54,682 nucleotides of DNA from Elusimicrobiota bacterium (GTDB taxonomy: Bacteria > Elusimicrobiota > Elusimicrobia > UBA1565 > UBA9628). The stretch spans positions 1-54,682 of the forward strand of contig JAYTSX010000244.1 of NCBI GenBank assembly GCA_043745445.1, in the 5' to 3' direction. The position numbers and the translations under genes are program-made. Shown here one piece after another: positions 17,310-29,994 of the stretch. The notes under the pieces were generated by a model. It was not told the origin of the DNA and made no database searches. It was given only the letters and a program-made list of their open reading frames with translations. The number at the start of each line of letters is the position of its first letter. Position 1 is the stretch's first letter.

Positions 17310-17744
17310 TACCGGACGAGGCCCATTTTCGAGGAGAAGTCGTTCTTCCCCCTGGGATCGGACCGTCCGGAGACCTCGCGCTTCCGCGTCATCAGCGCGA
17401 CGCTCGAGAACCTGCCGGGGCTCATCAAGGCCGGGCGCATGCGCTTCGACTTCTTCCAGCGCGTGCACGGCCTGAGCGTCGAGCTCAAGCCGCTCCCCGC
17501 GCGCAAGTGCGACCTGATGCCGCTGATCGCGTCCTTCAGCCGCACCGGCAAGCGCCTCGCCTTCAGCGCGGACGCCAAGAAGCTCGTGCTGGCCCACGAC
17601 TGGCTCGGCAACGCGCGCGAGCAGCCCGGCCTGACCGACGAGGCGCTGAGAGCCATGATCTCCCGCATCTATGGAATCGAATTGTCCCGGCGGTCGGTCA
17701 CGCAATATCGCGCAGACCTTGGGCTGACCGCGCGCGGCAGATAG
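17310..17744 (+). pseudogene. Truncated sigma54-dependent activator (bEBP AAA+ C-terminal half) joined in frame to an RpoN-box-like HTH
   Basis: After a stop at 17307-17309 the frame reads EEKSFFPLGS...FRVISAT...GRMRFDFFQRV...HDWLGNARE (bEBP motifs). It continues TDEALRAMISRIYGIELSRRSVTQYRADL (cf. RpoN box ARRTVAKYR). No Walker A, GAFTGA or upstream start. Confidence 0.7.
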
Positions 17745-17759
17745 CCGCTCCGGAAACCC

Positions 17760-17788
17760 TGGGCCGCGCGGCCCCCAGAAGGTATACT
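17760..17788 (+). promoter_or_regulatory. -10 box TATACT (17783-17788) 7 nt before ATG 17796, with palindrome TGGGCC-GCGC-GGCCCC (17760-17775) over the spacer
   Basis: Read directly from sequence; leaderless-type spacing. Confidence 0.45.
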
Positions 17789-17795
17789 GACGGCC

Positions 17796-26325: not shown

Positions 26326-27542
26326 AATGGGCGCCCCGCACCGCGGGCAGCAATATCGCCCGCTATTATCTCTACAGCTTTCTCGCGAACCTCGACCTGT
26401 CCCGCGGCATTTTCGTCCTCTTCCTGATCACGCGCGGCCTGTCGATGTCCCAGGTCGGCGTCCTGCAGACCATATTGTTCTGGAGCAATCTCGGCGCCGA
26501 GATTCCGGCCGGCATCTTGGCCGACAAGACCAAGCGGAAATACTCCGTGGCATTCGGACTGCTGTGCATAGCACTCGCGGCCGTGCTCATGATCTTCTCG
26601 CGAAGCTATCTGCTGTTCGCGGTCGCCTTTTTCCTGCACGGCGTCGGCTTCGCCTTCCAGTCCGGCGCGGACAGCGCCATCCTGTTCGACGGCTTGAAGC
26701 AGGCTGGCCCGCCGTGGTCCGACGCCTGTGTCAAGATTTCGGCCCGCGCGCGCGGATTGGGAAGCGTCTCCATGGGAATCGCCATGTGTCTCGGGGGCTA
26801 CCTGCTCCAGGACCGCGTGGAGACGCTTTACTGGATCTTCGCCGGGGCCATGCTGCTGGCCGTCGTCGCCGTCTTGTCCATGGACGAGCCCGCCGGCCGC
26901 TCCCATCTGGCCGACGACGCGGCGGCCGTGCCCGGCGTCATCGAGAGCTTGCGGGGCTTCTTCTCGCGGAAGTCCGGCCGTGCGGTCTTTTGGTTCATCC
27001 TGGGCATGGGCTTCATCGAGGCGAGCAGCGCGCCGCTCTTCATCTACGGCCAGGTCCTGTTCAAGGACTACGGCATGGCCGGCGGTTGGATCGCGGCGAT
27101 CATGGCCGCCGCCATGGGGGTCAATTGCCTCGGCTTCCTGCTCGCGGAGCGATTGGGGCGATACTCCGTGCCGACGCTCGTCATGAACCTGAGCCTGGCC
27201 ACTTCGCTCCTGACTTTCGGGTATCTCGCCCATCCTTCTCTGGCCGTCGCCATCCCGCTTTTCATCTGCATCGACCTGCTCCCCGGTGTCCTCTTCGTAC
27301 ACACGGACAACTACATCAACGACCGCGTGCCCACGGAGATCCGGGCGAGCGTCCTCTCCGTGCATTCCTTCCTGAGCTCCATCTGCGTCAGCTTCGCGTT
27401 CTTGGGGATGGGCGTCGCGCTGGAGCACGTCCCCTCGCATCTGGCGTTGGGAAGCCTGGGGATACTGCCGCTGATCGGAATGGCGGCCTTGTCCGCTTAC
27501 TTCAAAACTCAAGCCGTCGAGATCGAGGCCAGCCCGTGCTGA
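26322..27542 (+). CDS. MFS transporter (probable exporter)
   Basis: About 12 hydrophobic segments; EIPAGILADKTKRKYS, SGADSAILFD and IRASVLS. Confidence 0.9.
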   Translation: MKWAPRTAGSNIARYYLYSFLANLDLSRGIFVLFLITRGLSMSQVGVLQTILFWSNLGAEIPAGILADKTKRKYSVAFGLLCIALAAVLMIFSRSYLLFAVAFFLHGVGFAFQSGADSAILFDGLKQAGPPWSDACVKISARARGLGSVSMGIAMCLGGYLLQDRVETLYWIFAGAMLLAVVAVLSMDEPAGRSHLADDAAAVPGVIESLRGFFSRKSGRAVFWFILGMGFIEASSAPLFIYGQVLFKDYGMAGGWIAAIMAAAMGVNCLGFLLAERLGRYSVPTLVMNLSLATSLLTFGYLAHPSLAVAIPLFICIDLLPGVLFVHTDNYINDRVPTEIRASVLSVHSFLSSICVSFAFLGMGVALEHVPSHLALGSLGILPLIGMAALSAYFKTQAVEIEASPC

Positions 27543-28582
27543 CGATAAGCGCTCTGCGCGAAAAATACGGAGCCGGCATCCAGCTCCGGCCCGATCTTCT
27601 CACCGAATGGGGAGACGATCGCCTGACGCTTCACGGCGACAAGATGTGGGAACTGCGCGGCCTGAAGCCCGCCGACATGGCTTTTCTTCGGAGCCTCAGC
27701 GACGGCTTGGTCCTCGCGCCGTCGCTCCCCGAGAGCGGCGCCCGGATCTGGAAGCTCTTGACCTTCTTCGCGGACAAGGGCCTATTGAAATCCCTGTCGC
27801 CCACCGGCTACGAACACTCCCCGTTCGAACGGCAGGTGGAGTGGCTATCGTACTTCTCGCCGGAGCCCGCCGGAGTTCAAGAGGACCTGCGGCGCAAACG
27901 GGTCGCGATCATCGGCTGCGGCGGAACGGGCGCCCTGATCGCCCTCCATCTGGCCCGCGCCGGCGTCGGCCGCTTCCTTCTCATCGACGGCGCGGAGGTC
28001 GACCTTCCCGATCTCAACCGTCAGCTTTCTTATTTCCCGAAAGACCTGGGCGTCCGCAAAACCGAAGCGCTGGGCCGGCACCTCGCGGAACTGGACCCCG
28101 CCATCGAGCGCATCGCGCACGCGGAATTCATCGACGGTCCCGAGAGCCTCCGTGCGCTCCTTGAACGCCACCCTTGCGAACTCGTCATCAACTGCGCCGA
28201 CAAGCCGGTGGGACTCGTCCAGGCCTGGGCGGTCTCGGGTACGCCGGCCGGGATTCCCGTCCTCTTCGGCGGCGTGGGACTCGAGTCGGCCTCCATCGGG
28301 CCGCTTCTGACGGAGCCGGAAGCCCGACGCGCTTTTCAGCGGGACATGGAGAGCGGCGCCGCGCGGCTCGACGAGAGCGCGCGGCCCCTGAAGGCCTCGC
28401 TCTGCTTCACGAACACGATCGCCTCCACGTGGATTGCCTTTGAGGCCTTCCGGTATTTGTCGGGGGTCGGCGCGCCGCTGACCCGCGGACGCTCGCTGCG
28501 GCTGGACTTCGCGTCGGGCGCGCTCACCACCGAGAAAAACTGGAACGAAGCCGCGCCCGAGGAAGCCCGATGCGAACGCTGA
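27536..28582 (+). CDS. ThiF/MccB/PaaA-like adenylyltransferase with about 90-aa N-terminal (RRE-like) extension
   Basis: GTG 27536 after GAGG, overlapping the MFS stop. Motifs FERQ, VAIIGCGGTG, LIDGAEVDLPDLNRQ, DLGVRKTEAL, CADKP and IGPL. No CxxC motifs. Confidence 0.85.
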   Translation: MLTISALREKYGAGIQLRPDLLTEWGDDRLTLHGDKMWELRGLKPADMAFLRSLSDGLVLAPSLPESGARIWKLLTFFADKGLLKSLSPTGYEHSPFERQVEWLSYFSPEPAGVQEDLRRKRVAIIGCGGTGALIALHLARAGVGRFLLIDGAEVDLPDLNRQLSYFPKDLGVRKTEALGRHLAELDPAIERIAHAEFIDGPESLRALLERHPCELVINCADKPVGLVQAWAVSGTPAGIPVLFGGVGLESASIGPLLTEPEARRAFQRDMESGAARLDESARPLKASLCFTNTIASTWIAFEAFRYLSGVGAPLTRGRSLRLDFASGALTTEKNWNEAAPEEARCER

Positions 28583-29994
28583 CGCTCGACGTCGATCTCC
28601 CCGGGAACGAACGCCCGGGCCGGCCCAGCGTCAACGAGCGGCTCGTGCACGGGATCTTCGGGCTCGCGCGGAACTCCGCTCCGAGGACTTTGCTCGGCCG
28701 GTGCGAGGTCCCCGCGGAAGGCCTCACCTACATCACGGGCTCGAGCGGCAGCGGGAAGTCGTCGTTGCTCAAGGCCCTATTGAAGAAATACCCCGAGGCC
28801 GCCTGTGAACCTGCGGCGTTGCCCGCCGACACGCGAGTGGTCGACAGCCTCGAAGGCGCGTTGTCCGAGGTCATCGCCTGGCTCGGGCGCTTCGGCCTGG
28901 GCGAGGCACGCATCTTGGTGACCCCGTGCGAGGCGCTCTCCGTCGGGCAGAAGGAGCGCCTCAAGATCGCCCGCCTGCTGTGGGAGGAACCCGCCGTCGT
29001 GGTGCTCGACGAGTTCCTCTCCTGCCTGGACCGCCTCACCGCCCGGGTCGTCGCCTATCAATTCCAAAAGGCCGCCCGTCAGTTGCACACGACGTGCTAC
29101 GTCGCGACCGCCCACGACGACCTCACGGACGCGCTCTTTCCCGACAGCCTCCTGACGCTGGATTTCGAAGGCGTCCACGAAACGACACATCCCGAGTTCG
29201 CCGAGCGCGTTCTCGCCGAATCGAAGGAGGTCTCGATGCGCGACGGCGACCTCTCGGACTACGAAAAGCTCAAGCGGTTCCACTACATGGACAGCCAGAT
29301 CGGAGACCTCGCTCTCGATCCGGACGATATCGTGACGATTCGGGCCGCGACGTTCCGGGGCAAGACGGTCGGAGTCAGAGTCTTCACCAAGATGTTCCCC
29401 TCCCGGTTCGAGTCCCTCGCGCTTTTCCGGAAGATCAACGAGCTCGCAGTGCTGAGCTCGCGGGTTATCGTGCATCCGGCCTTCCGCGGCCTCGGGATTT
29501 CCCGACACATGGACCTGCCCGCGGAGCTGCAGGGGAAATTTAAGAAGATCTTCACGCACTCGGCTCTCGCCGCTTACTTCCCCTTCGATCGGGCGGGCGG
29601 CTATCGCGCGGTAGGACACGTCTCGCAACGCAAGAGCCGGGGCCAGCTGCGATTCGTCGAGGCCGTCGGCGCCCTGGGCCTGAACGACATCGAGGCGCTC
29701 AACGATCCCGCGCTGTGCCGCGCCTTCTGGGACCGCCTGCCGGCCGCGCAGAAAAACGAACTACGGGAACTCAGCGCGGAAGCCCTCGCCGATTACGACG
29801 CGCGCTACACGCTCTCCGTGCTGGGAGAGCTCGGCATGGCTCCGACCGGCACGCTGGAAAGCGGCCTGCGGCAATTCTTTCGCCGGGGGCTCGACGCGGT
29901 CGCCGACGGGGACTCCTGGAAGCTGTTGAGCGAGACCCTGCCTTTCCCGATGGAAGGCCTCGTCAAAGACCTTGGCGGCGCCCGCGCGGGCTAA
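28570..29994 (+). CDS. ABC-type ATPase fused to GNAT-like acetyltransferase domain (COG2401-like)
   Basis: GSSGSGKS, LSVGQ, VVLDEF and ATAHDD; then LKRFHY and SRVIVHPAFRGLGIS (GNAT motif A). Confidence 0.82.
   Translation: MRTLTLDVDLPGNERPGRPSVNERLVHGIFGLARNSAPRTLLGRCEVPAEGLTYITGSSGSGKSSLLKALLKKYPEAACEPAALPADTRVVDSLEGALSEVIAWLGRFGLGEARILVTPCEALSVGQKERLKIARLLWEEPAVVVLDEFLSCLDRLTARVVAYQFQKAARQLHTTCYVATAHDDLTDALFPDSLLTLDFEGVHETTHPEFAERVLAESKEVSMRDGDLSDYEKLKRFHYMDSQIGDLALDPDDIVTIRAATFRGKTVGVRVFTKMFPSRFESLALFRKINELAVLSSRVIVHPAFRGLGISRHMDLPAELQGKFKKIFTHSALAAYFPFDRAGGYRAVGHVSQRKSRGQLRFVEAVGALGLNDIEALNDPALCRAFWDRLPAAQKNELRELSAEALADYDARYTLSVLGELGMAPTGTLESGLRQFFRRGLDAVADGDSWKLLSETLPFPMEGLVKDLGGARAG

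Follow-up and report, generated by a model that had tools for sequence, protein, structure and literature searches.

The stretch of DNA analyzed here (the window; positions 1 to 54,682, in nucleotides (nt), of contig JAYTSX010000244.1, assembly GCA_043745445.1, from an Elusimicrobiota bacterium assigned to UBA1565; UBA9628) has a G+C content of ~64% and carries, between a DEAD-box helicase gene and an endonuclease I gene, a strain-specific island that is an insertion of ~13.5 kb relative to its congeners (Table 1). The island holds three groups of genes: a regulatory remnant followed by two solute-binding proteins of the SBP5 family (SBP1 and SBP2) and a membrane histidine kinase (module A); a 2'-deoxyguanosine-II (2'-dG-II) riboswitch, a 58-amino acid (aa) open reading frame (ORF) and an alpha-ketoglutarate (aKG)-HExxH-type peptide hydroxylase (module B); and, diverging from module B, a σ54-type promoter motif, a 45-aa precursor ORF, a hairpin, and genes for a JmjC hydroxylase, an OppA-like protein, a major facilitator superfamily (MFS) transporter, a ThiF enzyme and an ABC-ATPase/GNAT fusion, in that order (module C; 23830–29994). 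We consider it likely that these are three separable units, of which module C is a complete operon for a modified ribosomal peptide and module B an independent pair. Module C, an uncharacterized ThiF/MccB-type cluster with a precursor ending in Arg-Arg-Cys (RRC), is probably the most valuable part of the island, and module B is plausibly a second, minimal peptide-hydroxylase pair under a riboswitch. An earlier interpretation made from the letters alone (the sequence-only reading) had placed every named gene, the riboswitch and both short ORFs at or near the positions given here, and had set them between housekeeping genes, a description that is correct and that comparison with congeners sharpens to an insertion of the whole stretch.

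Table 1. Features of the island, by module, and of its flanks (coordinates refer to the window).
Feature	Position	Strand	Evidence and remarks
Module C: σ54-type -24/-12 motif TGGCAT-N5-TTGAT	23830–23845	+	-12 element TTGA, non-canonical
Module C: 45-aa precursor ORF	23900–24037	+	Ends Arg-Arg-Cys
Module C: 12-bp GC stem-loop, perfect	24047–24074	+	-35.7 kcal/mol, z -4.09; between precursor and enzyme genes
Module C: JmjC/cupin-8 Fe(II)/2-oxoglutarate hydroxylase	24098–25072	+	Cupin_8 2.2e-15, JmjC 1e-6
Module C: OppA-like peptide-binding-fold protein	25069–26325	+	Family profile against OppA, MppA and NikA structures, best E 1.5e-18
Module C: MFS transporter	26322–27542	+	MFS_1 5.3e-20
Module C: MccB-like ThiF adenylyltransferase	27536–28582	+	ThiF PF00899 6.7e-28; GTG start overlaps MFS stop
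Module C: soluble ABC-type ATPase fused to GNAT-like domain	28570–29994	+	ABC_tran 2.7e-13; model pLDDT 89.3
Module B: 2'-dG-II purine riboswitch aptamer	23646–23716	-	RF03165, 73.7 bits (gathering score 60), E 4e-17, model positions 1–71
Module B: expression platform, terminator hairpin and U-tract	23608–23651	-	5' arm includes 3' arm of P1
Module B: 58-aa ORF	23407–23583	-	GGAGAGG 8 nt before ATG; stop overlaps HExxH start (GTGA)
Module B: aKG-HExxH-type peptide hydroxylase	22463–23410	-	TIGR04267 62.3 bits (cut-off 40), E 5.5e-17, positions 3–177 of 177
Module A: fused regulatory remnant, 144 aa	17310–17741	+	Sigma54_activat PF00158 positions 117–167, E 1.3e-6
Module A: SBP1, SBP5 family	17796–19208	+	PF00496 E 1.6e-31
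Module A: SBP2, SBP5 family	19210–20676	+	PF00496 E 3e-36; weak nickel/opine-type NCBIfam matches
Module A: membrane histidine kinase	20673–22343	+	HATPase_c 5.1e-20; HisKA 1.5e-5, 25.4 bits (cut-off 26.9)
Island	17171–30647		Between DEAD-box helicase and endonuclease I genes
GDSL-type hydrolase	29963–30637	-	Lipase_GDSL_2 4.2e-27; inside the insertion
DEAD-box helicase gene	15922–17148	-	Left flank of the island
Endonuclease I gene	30699–32009	+	Right flank of the island; secreted product
MFS gene	31975–33144		Beyond endonuclease I

Module C is a self-contained cluster that recurs without either of its neighbors. Its five enzyme and transport genes have starts that overlap the preceding stops, and its rarest marker is the ABC-ATPase/GNAT fusion, found in 1 of the 401 genomes of a phylum sample and in 30 proteins at E ≤1e-5 among 5.8 billion. 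A profile was built from 22 of those 30 proteins, and 72 loci (28 from genomes and 44 from metagenomes) were retrieved and screened by tblastn with all island proteins. Close homologues of the fusion (34–50% identity) occur in 22 of these loci; a ThiF gene adjoins the fusion in 21 of them, and the last is cut by a contig end 181 nt upstream. The full order of JmjC, SBP-fold, (MFS), ThiF and ATPase fusion is kept in 11 loci, while other genes of the cluster are absent from all 50 of the loci whose homologues are distant (archaea, Planctomycetota). The carriers are Bdellovibrionaceae, Bacteriovoracaceae, metagenome-assembled genomes (MAGs) named 'Proteobacteria', eight Streptomyces, one Streptosporangium and one Actinocrinis, where the term Bdellovibrio-like, as used below, is taken from the record titles of the closest loci and one source name. 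Many of the loci are close kin, and together they hold about six distinct peptide sequences from two phyla. Among the 22 loci with a close homologue there is no HExxH enzyme and no SBP1, the one weak SBP2 match (E 4e-4) overlaps the cluster's own OppA-like gene, and the only kinase match near module C elsewhere is weak (L004, 23% identity, E 5e-7).

A peptide of 35–53 aa ending in RRC is encoded upstream of the JmjC gene in 10 of the 11 loci that carry this gene, and the eleventh locus begins 152 nt before it. An alignment of seven of the peptides keeps the motif E-x-I/V-E/T/M-L/V-x-I/F-x-x-L and an invariant C-terminal RRC. As a background, RRC stands at the end of 14 out of 3258 frames from the actinomycete loci, and seven of these 14 are the precursor peptides themselves, and a search of 10 further loci returned no RRC-ending ORF except in L011. 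An ORF ending in PRRC behind a riboswitch in L091 and L110 was dropped, with the cluster genes absent downstream. The stem-loop between the precursor and the enzyme genes is probably an attenuator: a strong, essentially uninterrupted stem stands at the same position in five of the six loci folded (perfect in four, with one G-U pair in L032), and the sequences that form it are unrelated. Ahead of the precursor, the promoter motif is the sole match in the window to TGGCAYNNNNNTTGMW (23830–23845; 0.08 expected; one match in 8 of 100 shuffles). A canonical TGGCAC-N5-TTGCT precedes the precursor at the same place in L003 and L004, the precursor in L032 is preceded by TGGCAC-N5-GTGCT, with one non-consensus base in the -12 element, and a scan of 22300–24200 for σ70-type promoters found none. 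The peptide-modification cluster that the sequence-only reading had proposed is therefore real, and conserved, as far as module C is concerned, as the homologous enzymes keep both their order and a similar short ORF, and the accompanying remark that no characterized pathway with this gene set was known agrees with the literature search, in which no paper describing it was found; subscription journals and supplementary files lay outside that search, and the enzymes of module C may already figure in sequence-similarity networks that are part of the supplements of PMC12150305 and PMC12636437.

The gene content varies somewhat among the carriers. In the Streptomyces locus L007, the only one of its kind to be scanned for domains, a PmbA/TldD-type peptidase (11307–12737) and a DAO-family FAD oxidoreductase (12810–14285) lie between the ATPase fusion and the MFS gene, and the same two extra genes are present by position in L006, L008, L010, L011, L013, and L014. 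A sub-family (L005, L009, L036, and L037) is without the JmjC gene and retains the ThiF and ATPase fusion genes, together with the OppA-like gene in L005 and L036 and the MFS gene in L005 only. An RRC-ending ORF was not found in L005, L009, or L036, the loci searched, all with their upstream sequence kept, and this sub-family may use another precursor.

The proteins of module C are consistent with the modification and export of a peptide. The ThiF family profile has MccB as its best solved relative (6.5e-44), followed by PaaA (1.6e-28), and MoeB/ThiF also fall behind MccB. Across 12 family sequences GxGGxG, D151, N161-R162-Q163, K175, and D222 are invariant and align to the matching motifs of MccB. 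Pfam recognizes no family in the N-terminal domain, for which the predicted model (pLDDT, the predicted local distance difference test, 89.5) has strands at residues 14–41 and then helices at 45–80; Foldseek aligns the 348-aa model to MccB over 336–355 columns, N-terminal domain included, with TM scores of 0.68–0.75 in the top MccB rows. On the strength of this model, the enzyme carries a predicted N-terminal peptide-clamp/leader-binding domain fused to its catalytic domain. When the ThiF dimer was modeled in complex with the precursor, the prediction scored 0.50 (runs of 0.50, 0.09, and 0.51) vs. 0.02 for the best of three controls, with runs agreeing in at least 31% of contacts and a partner pLDDT of at least 45. 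Of 80 solved complexes 58 pass the mark applied, as do 2 of 110 mismatched pairs, and at scores ≤0.60 it is reached by only 7 of the 80 solved complexes and by both of the mismatches. The prediction lends weak support to the pairing of enzyme and precursor, and because MccB-MccA complexes have been solved the pass may be a matter of mere likeness.

Of the remaining proteins, the JmjC enzyme retains an intact facial triad, with H154, D156, K171, and H225 invariant in eight sequences, and its best solved relatives are JMJD6 (7.6e-27) and JMJD5 (8.6e-24), the latter an arginine hydroxylase, so that it is nearest to protein Lys/Arg hydroxylases. The OppA-like protein matches the SBP5 family of Pfam only weakly; an N-terminal hydrophobic segment or signal peptide is absent in all 10 family members, from which it would appear to be cytoplasmic. 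The MFS transporter, the probable exporter, is kept in or beside the cluster in 15 other loci. The N-terminal half of the fusion is an ABC ATPase domain, and the cluster encodes no membrane partner. For the C-terminal half, a fold search is silent, having returned only ABC ATPase domains, and a language-model look-alike search gives GNAT as the best named cluster (0.96), with which the source names of homologues concur.

Module C is closest to the ThiF/MccB-dependent RiPPs (peptides made by the ribosome and modified after translation), yet the defining features of the microcin C and GRC types fail. If the cluster were of the microcin C type, the ThiF enzyme would place a nucleotide on the C-terminus of the precursor to give a Trojan-horse peptidyl-nucleotide, with the MFS transporter in the role of MccC and the GNAT-like domain providing immunity in the manner of MccE. 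MccB is by far the closest solved relative (6.5e-44 vs. 1.6e-28 for PaaA) and matches in fold, including the N-terminal clamp, and the gene set resembles the mcc layout, in which a short precursor gene, an MccB-like enzyme, an MFS transporter and a GNAT-like domain are also found. Further, a hairpin lies 3' of the precursor gene, just as one follows mccA in mccA-mccB. All described MccA peptides, to our knowledge, end in Asn, the side-chain amide of which forms an N-P bond, whereas all 10 peptides found here terminate in Cys and the 45-aa precursor has a conserved leader-like motif. The JmjC hydroxylase and the cytoplasmic OppA-like protein are without counterpart in mcc clusters, the GNAT-like domain is fused to an ABC ATPase, and the cysteines aligned to the MccB CxxC, which in MccB-type enzymes belong to a cysteine zinc site, are absent. 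With these differences a microcin C-type product seems unlikely.

A second comparison is with the GRC-type RiPPs of Streptococcus pneumoniae (GrcA/GrcB). GrcB is described as a ThiF-like enzyme with an N-terminal recognition domain that joins Glu35 and the C-terminal Cys39 in a precursor whose last residues are Gly-Arg-Cys, the thiolactone of this type requiring a Glu four residues ahead of the Cys as well as radical SAM partners (PMC12250964), and by analogy the ThiF enzyme of module C would adenylate an internal Glu or Asp side chain, on which the thiol of the C-terminal Cys would close a thiolactone macrocycle. The likeness, which for the two enzymes is one of description and not of sequence or structure, lies in the ThiF-like enzyme and in peptides that end in Arg-Cys with acidic residues upstream. 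At the fourth residue ahead of the Cys the seven peptides carry Met, Ala, or Leu and never Glu, the nearest acidic residue stands 5 to 14 places from the Cys at a varying distance, and no radical SAM domain occurs among the cluster proteins or in the eight ORFs scanned in the Streptomyces locus L007; the phylum and the accessory genes differ as well. A GRC-type macrocycle is accordingly also an outcome we hold to be unlikely. Pantocin A (PaaP/PaaA) shares a ThiF-like enzyme with a leader-binding domain, PaaA being the second-best solved relative of the module C enzyme, and from a few residues of its ~30-aa precursor there likewise arises a small product that is exported. The target of PaaA is an internal Glu-Glu-Asn, in contrast to a C-terminal Arg-Arg-Cys core, and the similarity is much below that to MccB. 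Biphenomycin of Streptomyces resembles module C in having a JmjC hydroxylase acting on a basic precursor residue, in that case an ornithine hydroxylase, a TldD-type leader peptidase (PMC12707348) and an MFS pump, and resembles module B in its aKG-HExxH enzyme; it is unlike the island in lacking a ThiF enzyme, in a core chemistry of MNIO and radical SAM biaryl coupling, and in an unrelated precursor.

The scheme that we favor starts from the C-terminal carboxylate. MccB adenylates its peptide's own C-terminal carboxylate, and as the ThiF enzyme is closest to MccB and only the last three residues of the precursor are invariant, activation of the Cys45 carboxylate is the preferred reaction, with about an even chance of being the correct one. 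The σ54-type promoter would drive the 45-aa precursor, in which the only invariant core is the C-terminal RRC, and the hairpin 3' of the precursor stop would probably lower read-through into the five translationally coupled genes. The ThiF enzyme would grip the leader by its N-terminal clamp and adenylate the free carboxylate of the terminal Cys with ATP, after which a side-chain nucleophile within RRC, such as the hydroxyl of a JmjC-hydroxylated Arg, a guanidine nitrogen or the Cys thiol, would capture the activated carbonyl and generate a small C-terminal ring or conjugate. Hydroxylation of Arg by the JmjC enzyme would either supply this nucleophile or decorate the product. The cytoplasmic OppA-like protein may present or sequester the peptide, the GNAT half of the fusion may acetylate an amine as a maturation step or for self-protection, the MFS pump would export the product, and in Streptomyces the PmbA/TldD-type peptidase would trim the leader to leave a short RRC-derived product.

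Several observations weigh against this scheme. A C-terminal Cys cannot follow the succinimide route of MccB, and as there is no acidic residue at a fixed distance from the Cys a GrcB-type thiolactone is not obviously available either. The CxxC of MccB aligns to residues other than Cys in the ThiF enzyme, and no Cys is invariant in the 12-sequence family. Two elements named in the sequence-only reading stand in part only. The σ54 promoter holds as the one match of its kind in the window, while its -12 element reads TTGA in place of the canonical TTGC, and the ATPase-GNAT protein holds in its ABC ATPase half, while the GNAT assignment comes from the look-alike search and source names, with no GNAT family seen by Pfam in the C-terminal half.

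Module B is built around the riboswitch; nothing else in the window reaches the gathering score of an Rfam family. The aptamer is followed by an expression platform with a minimum free energy of -64.7 kcal/mol (z -3.79; 0 of 200 shuffles as good), the core stem of which was also returned by the terminator scan and is followed by UUUGUUU. As the 5' arm of the terminator contains the 3' arm of P1, ligand binding should prevent termination, and we infer that the element is an ON switch. A 2'-deoxyguanosine-class ligand would thus block the terminator and turn on the 58-aa small protein and the hydroxylase. The enzyme passes the family model of the aKG-HExxH peptide hydroxylases, as the sequence-only reading had supposed, and in an alignment of 18 family members H202, E203, H206, D216, R232, R236, and H243 are invariant. 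Its 22 homologues are all from MAGs or metagenomes and its only solved relative is ChlH (8s5f, E 1.8e-10). The N-terminus of the 58-aa ORF resembles a signal peptide, and its C-terminus is conserved and rich in Asp and His; an exhaustive HMMER search of 1.84 billion proteins found two end-to-end homologues (68 and 62 aa; E 9e-5 and 2.7e-4), which share with it the signal-peptide-like N-terminus and a C-terminal D-L-T/N-D-H/Q-S-F motif. This ORF is the probable substrate peptide of the HExxH enzyme. Characterized aKG-HExxH members are described as hydroxylating Asp, His, or Gln of precursor peptides, and as able to cleave the backbone (PMC12636437), and the hydroxylase of module B would probably β-hydroxylate an Asp or His in the conserved C-terminal motif.

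The pairing of a short ORF with a HExxH enzyme recurs within the genus. A HExxH gene other than that of module B (31% identity over 119 residues) is found in the congener G176, in a locus (L097) with a copy of the extended module C promoter motif at 683–700, a 30-aa ORF at 849–938, the HExxH gene at 898–1848 and then an MFS gene at 1814–3148. A 33-aa ORF (18–116, reverse strand) lies behind a second riboswitch of the genome analyzed here (aptamer at 217–287, reverse strand; L109, at the end of contig C156) and is related to the 30-aa ORF of G176 (38% identity, pairwise E 3e-5). Compared with ChlH, BpmH/BipH, and PflC/PosC, the enzyme of module B keeps the HExxH and the invariant His, Arg, and Asp residues and directly follows a short ORF. 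It differs in forming a stand-alone pair without a radical SAM, MNIO or other partner, in the signal-peptide-like N-terminus of its peptide, and in its position behind a riboswitch. The riboswitch in turn is a full-length match to the 2'-dG-II class with a terminator-type expression platform, and the genes it precedes encode a small peptide and a peptide hydroxylase and not nucleotide metabolism. A literature listing showed no RiPP precursor that is naturally under the control of a riboswitch.

The case for module B has its own difficulties. The homologues of the 58-aa ORF are marginal (E ~1e-4), and a word-based search of 5.8 billion proteins finds only the ORF itself. The HExxH family is present in few relatives (2 of 393 genomes of the class and 2 of 101 of the order by profile, and 2 of 401 in the phylum sample by single protein), the second HExxH locus, in G176, has no riboswitch at E ≤0.01, and the 58-aa protein looks Sec-exported when the HExxH enzyme is without a signal peptide. 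Sec-type leaders reportedly occur in the bufferin RiPPs. An alternative is that neither short ORF is a substrate, the 58-aa ORF being an ordinary secreted protein and the 45-aa ORF a regulatory or carrier peptide, with the enzymes acting on imported amino acids or small peptides. The Sec-type N-terminus agrees with it, secreted proteins are the products of most other genes that the riboswitch controls in the lineage, and solved relatives of the OppA-like protein bind free peptides with this fold. Against it stand the conservation of the 45-aa ORF in two phyla, where its C-terminus is invariant, a hairpin follows and its place ahead of the enzymes is fixed, the MccB peptide-clamp architecture predicted for the ThiF enzyme, and the action of characterized TIGR04267 members on precursor peptides (PMC12636437). 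We regard the non-substrate alternative as highly improbable, the least likely of those considered here.

The regulatory elements of modules B and C belong to a wider background in this lineage. The genome holds seven copies of RF03165 (the window copy at 23646–23716 and others on contigs C285, C156, C119, C139, C246, and C160), and matches occur in 61 of 101 relatives (58 above the cut-off; loci L076–L095), with up to 12 per genome and confined to three families of one order. The sequence-only reading had assigned this riboswitch to the control of the island; a lineage-wide element with seven copies in the genome does not bear this out. The genes behind it mostly encode secreted proteins and not nucleotide metabolism, along with an activator/σ54-like pair, small ORFs, and SBP5 genes. 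In the congener loci L078 and L084 a hydrophobic ORF of 47–50 aa lies ~90–250 nt after the aptamer and is followed by an SBP5-family gene, a further case of a small peptide paired with a binding protein. A 2017 survey lists 12 examples of 2'-dG-II, all metagenomic and with the taxon unassigned (PMC5473149).

The σ54-type elements are similarly dispersed. The genome has 13 Sigma54_activat matches and three proteins of ~316–367 aa with an RpoN box that match Sigma54_DBD only (C285:501–1490, L098; C325, L099 1492–2439; C246:1621–2724, L111). Two of the three short σ54-like genes directly follow activator genes, and the pair on C246 is behind a 2'-dG-II riboswitch. The extended motif TTGGCAT-(A/T-rich 5)-TTGATC is present in six near-identical copies: 23830–23848 of the window, C19:4881(-), C54:16827(+), C156:5045(-), C285:3125(+), and C285:55(-). 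Four of the six stand ~40–70 nt before the start codons of small or secreted proteins, while one of the remaining two abuts a contig end and the other is without a nearby ORF. This motif may be the promoter read by the short σ54-like proteins. It should be noted that the 93%-complete assembly has no match to Sigma54_CBD or Sigma54_AID, which counts against the scheme for module C. On contig C139, which also holds a paralogue of the island kinase, TGGCAC-N5-TTGAC occurs ~50 nt upstream of a 2'-dG-II aptamer (1979–2098, reverse strand), and the transcript there may be under both promoter and riboswitch controls.

Module A begins with what the sequence-only reading had described as a broken σ54-activator fragment, and 17310–17741 is indeed the end of a Sigma54_activat domain. 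Residues 7–110 are 59% identical to aa 252–355 of an intact activator on contig C246 (E 9e-44), and residues 18–144 match the σ54-like protein of C285 (35% identity, E 4e-13), most strongly between residues ~104–144 and the last ~40 aa, the RpoN-box end. Judged by these alignments, the remnant joins, in one frame, the AAA+ end of an activator and the RpoN-box end of a short σ54-like protein, and the regulatory gene at the left end of the island is thus a dead one. As the remnant matches both proteins, and as an activator gene is directly followed by a short σ54-like gene on both C246 and C285, the island would once have carried such a pair, the greater part of which is gone. SBP1 is without a signal peptide, its first hydrophobic segment lying no earlier than residue 26, while SBP2 has an N-terminal hydrophobic anchor or signal (hydrophobic maximum of 2.69 at residue 13). 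The hybrid kinase of the sequence-only reading retains its histidine kinase domains; the receiver tail falls below the cut-off, the C-terminal 107 aa matching Response_reg at E 0.021 (15.4 bits vs. a cut-off of 30.2). Pfam identifies no family in the sensor domain, and paralogues of the kinase are on contigs C19 and C139.

There is no evidence that links module A to module B or C beyond their co-insertion. The sequence-only reading had nonetheless joined the three into one system that makes and exports modified peptides, senses a cue through the SBP-SBP-kinase genes and is under joint riboswitch and σ54 control. The modules do share one 13.5-kb insertion, B and C diverge from a single 316-nt intergenic region, the kinase paralogues are on contigs that also carry a riboswitch or a σ54-type motif, and the left-end remnant shows that an activator/σ54-like pair was once part of the island. 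An integrated system sits poorly with the recurrence of module C at 21 other loci, none of which shows a credible counterpart of A or B. Additionally, only a truncated and fused form is left of the activator through which the kinase could have acted on the promoter, a signal peptide is missing from SBP1, and the riboswitch and promoter motif are general devices of the lineage placed before many unrelated genes. An integrated island is consequently very unlikely, and three separable units remain the preferred reading.

The island as an insertion (~17171–30647) is defined by its surroundings. The helicase gene is present in 37 of the 38 genomes of the genus, and the stretch on its island side, up to 20 kb, was compared in nine congeners. 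In eight of the nine regions endonuclease I begins 92–188 nt from the helicase side and is mostly followed by the same MFS gene as in the window; no query matched the ninth region (L108). Genes of the island are absent from the nine regions, save for a distant kinase-like match 15 kb away in L104, and the GDSL-type hydrolase gene was not found at the helicase/endonuclease I locus of the congeners examined. In the closest congener, G176, the helicase is 99% identical, homology on the left ends at ~17170 (by eye) and BLASTN homology picks up again on the right at 30648. The junctions have no shared repeats of ≥8 nt, and there is no integrase or transposase among the genes scanned for domain families. 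Contigs from four runs of one study, which are possibly the source of the assembly and in that case not independent of it, span both junctions at even depth. These contigs break exactly at the riboswitch aptamer and the activator fragment, as is expected because both are repeated elements. Two small skips and some odd joints in the run contigs, with sides of only 20–21 letters, were taken to be other organisms or repeats, and no RNA run was listed as containing the region. The position of endonuclease I beside a 2'-deoxyguanosine-sensing RNA fits a DNA-scavenging lifestyle, and no riboswitch precedes the endonuclease I gene.

A broader speculation, which we hold to be decidedly unlikely in its entirety, would unite the chemistry with this regulation. 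RRC peptides would then be a new chemotype, in which an MccB-type enzyme activates a C-terminal Cys beside a JmjC-hydroxylated Arg to form an exported warhead (a strained ring, an acyl-guanidine or a sulfur-linked nucleotide), common to soil actinomycetes and Bdellovibrio-like bacteria. In this lineage it would have been wired to a 2'-deoxyguanosine riboswitch regulon and to short σ54-like factors reading TGGCAT-N5-TTGAT, such that secreted effectors and modified peptides would be induced by DNA breakdown products released from decaying cells or prey.

The ThiF-dependent peptide products described in the literature form a small, recently growing group of microcin C, pantocin A, GRC, enterofaecin, and indolylamide (PMC12250964, PMC12150305), and each new member has so far brought a new bond-forming reaction. 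Because an MccB-like enzyme in combination with a C-terminal Cys fits neither known route, the reaction of module C is likely to be new as well. The cluster offers a clean, testable case, with a compact six-gene operon and a precursor with an invariant three-residue core, and as versions of it are found in cultured Streptomyces the product can be sought directly. Module B adds a natural riboswitch directly before what is plausibly a peptide/hydroxylase pair, and now that the rare 2'-dG-II class can be placed in a definable lineage whose genomes hold many copies, its biological role becomes accessible to study.

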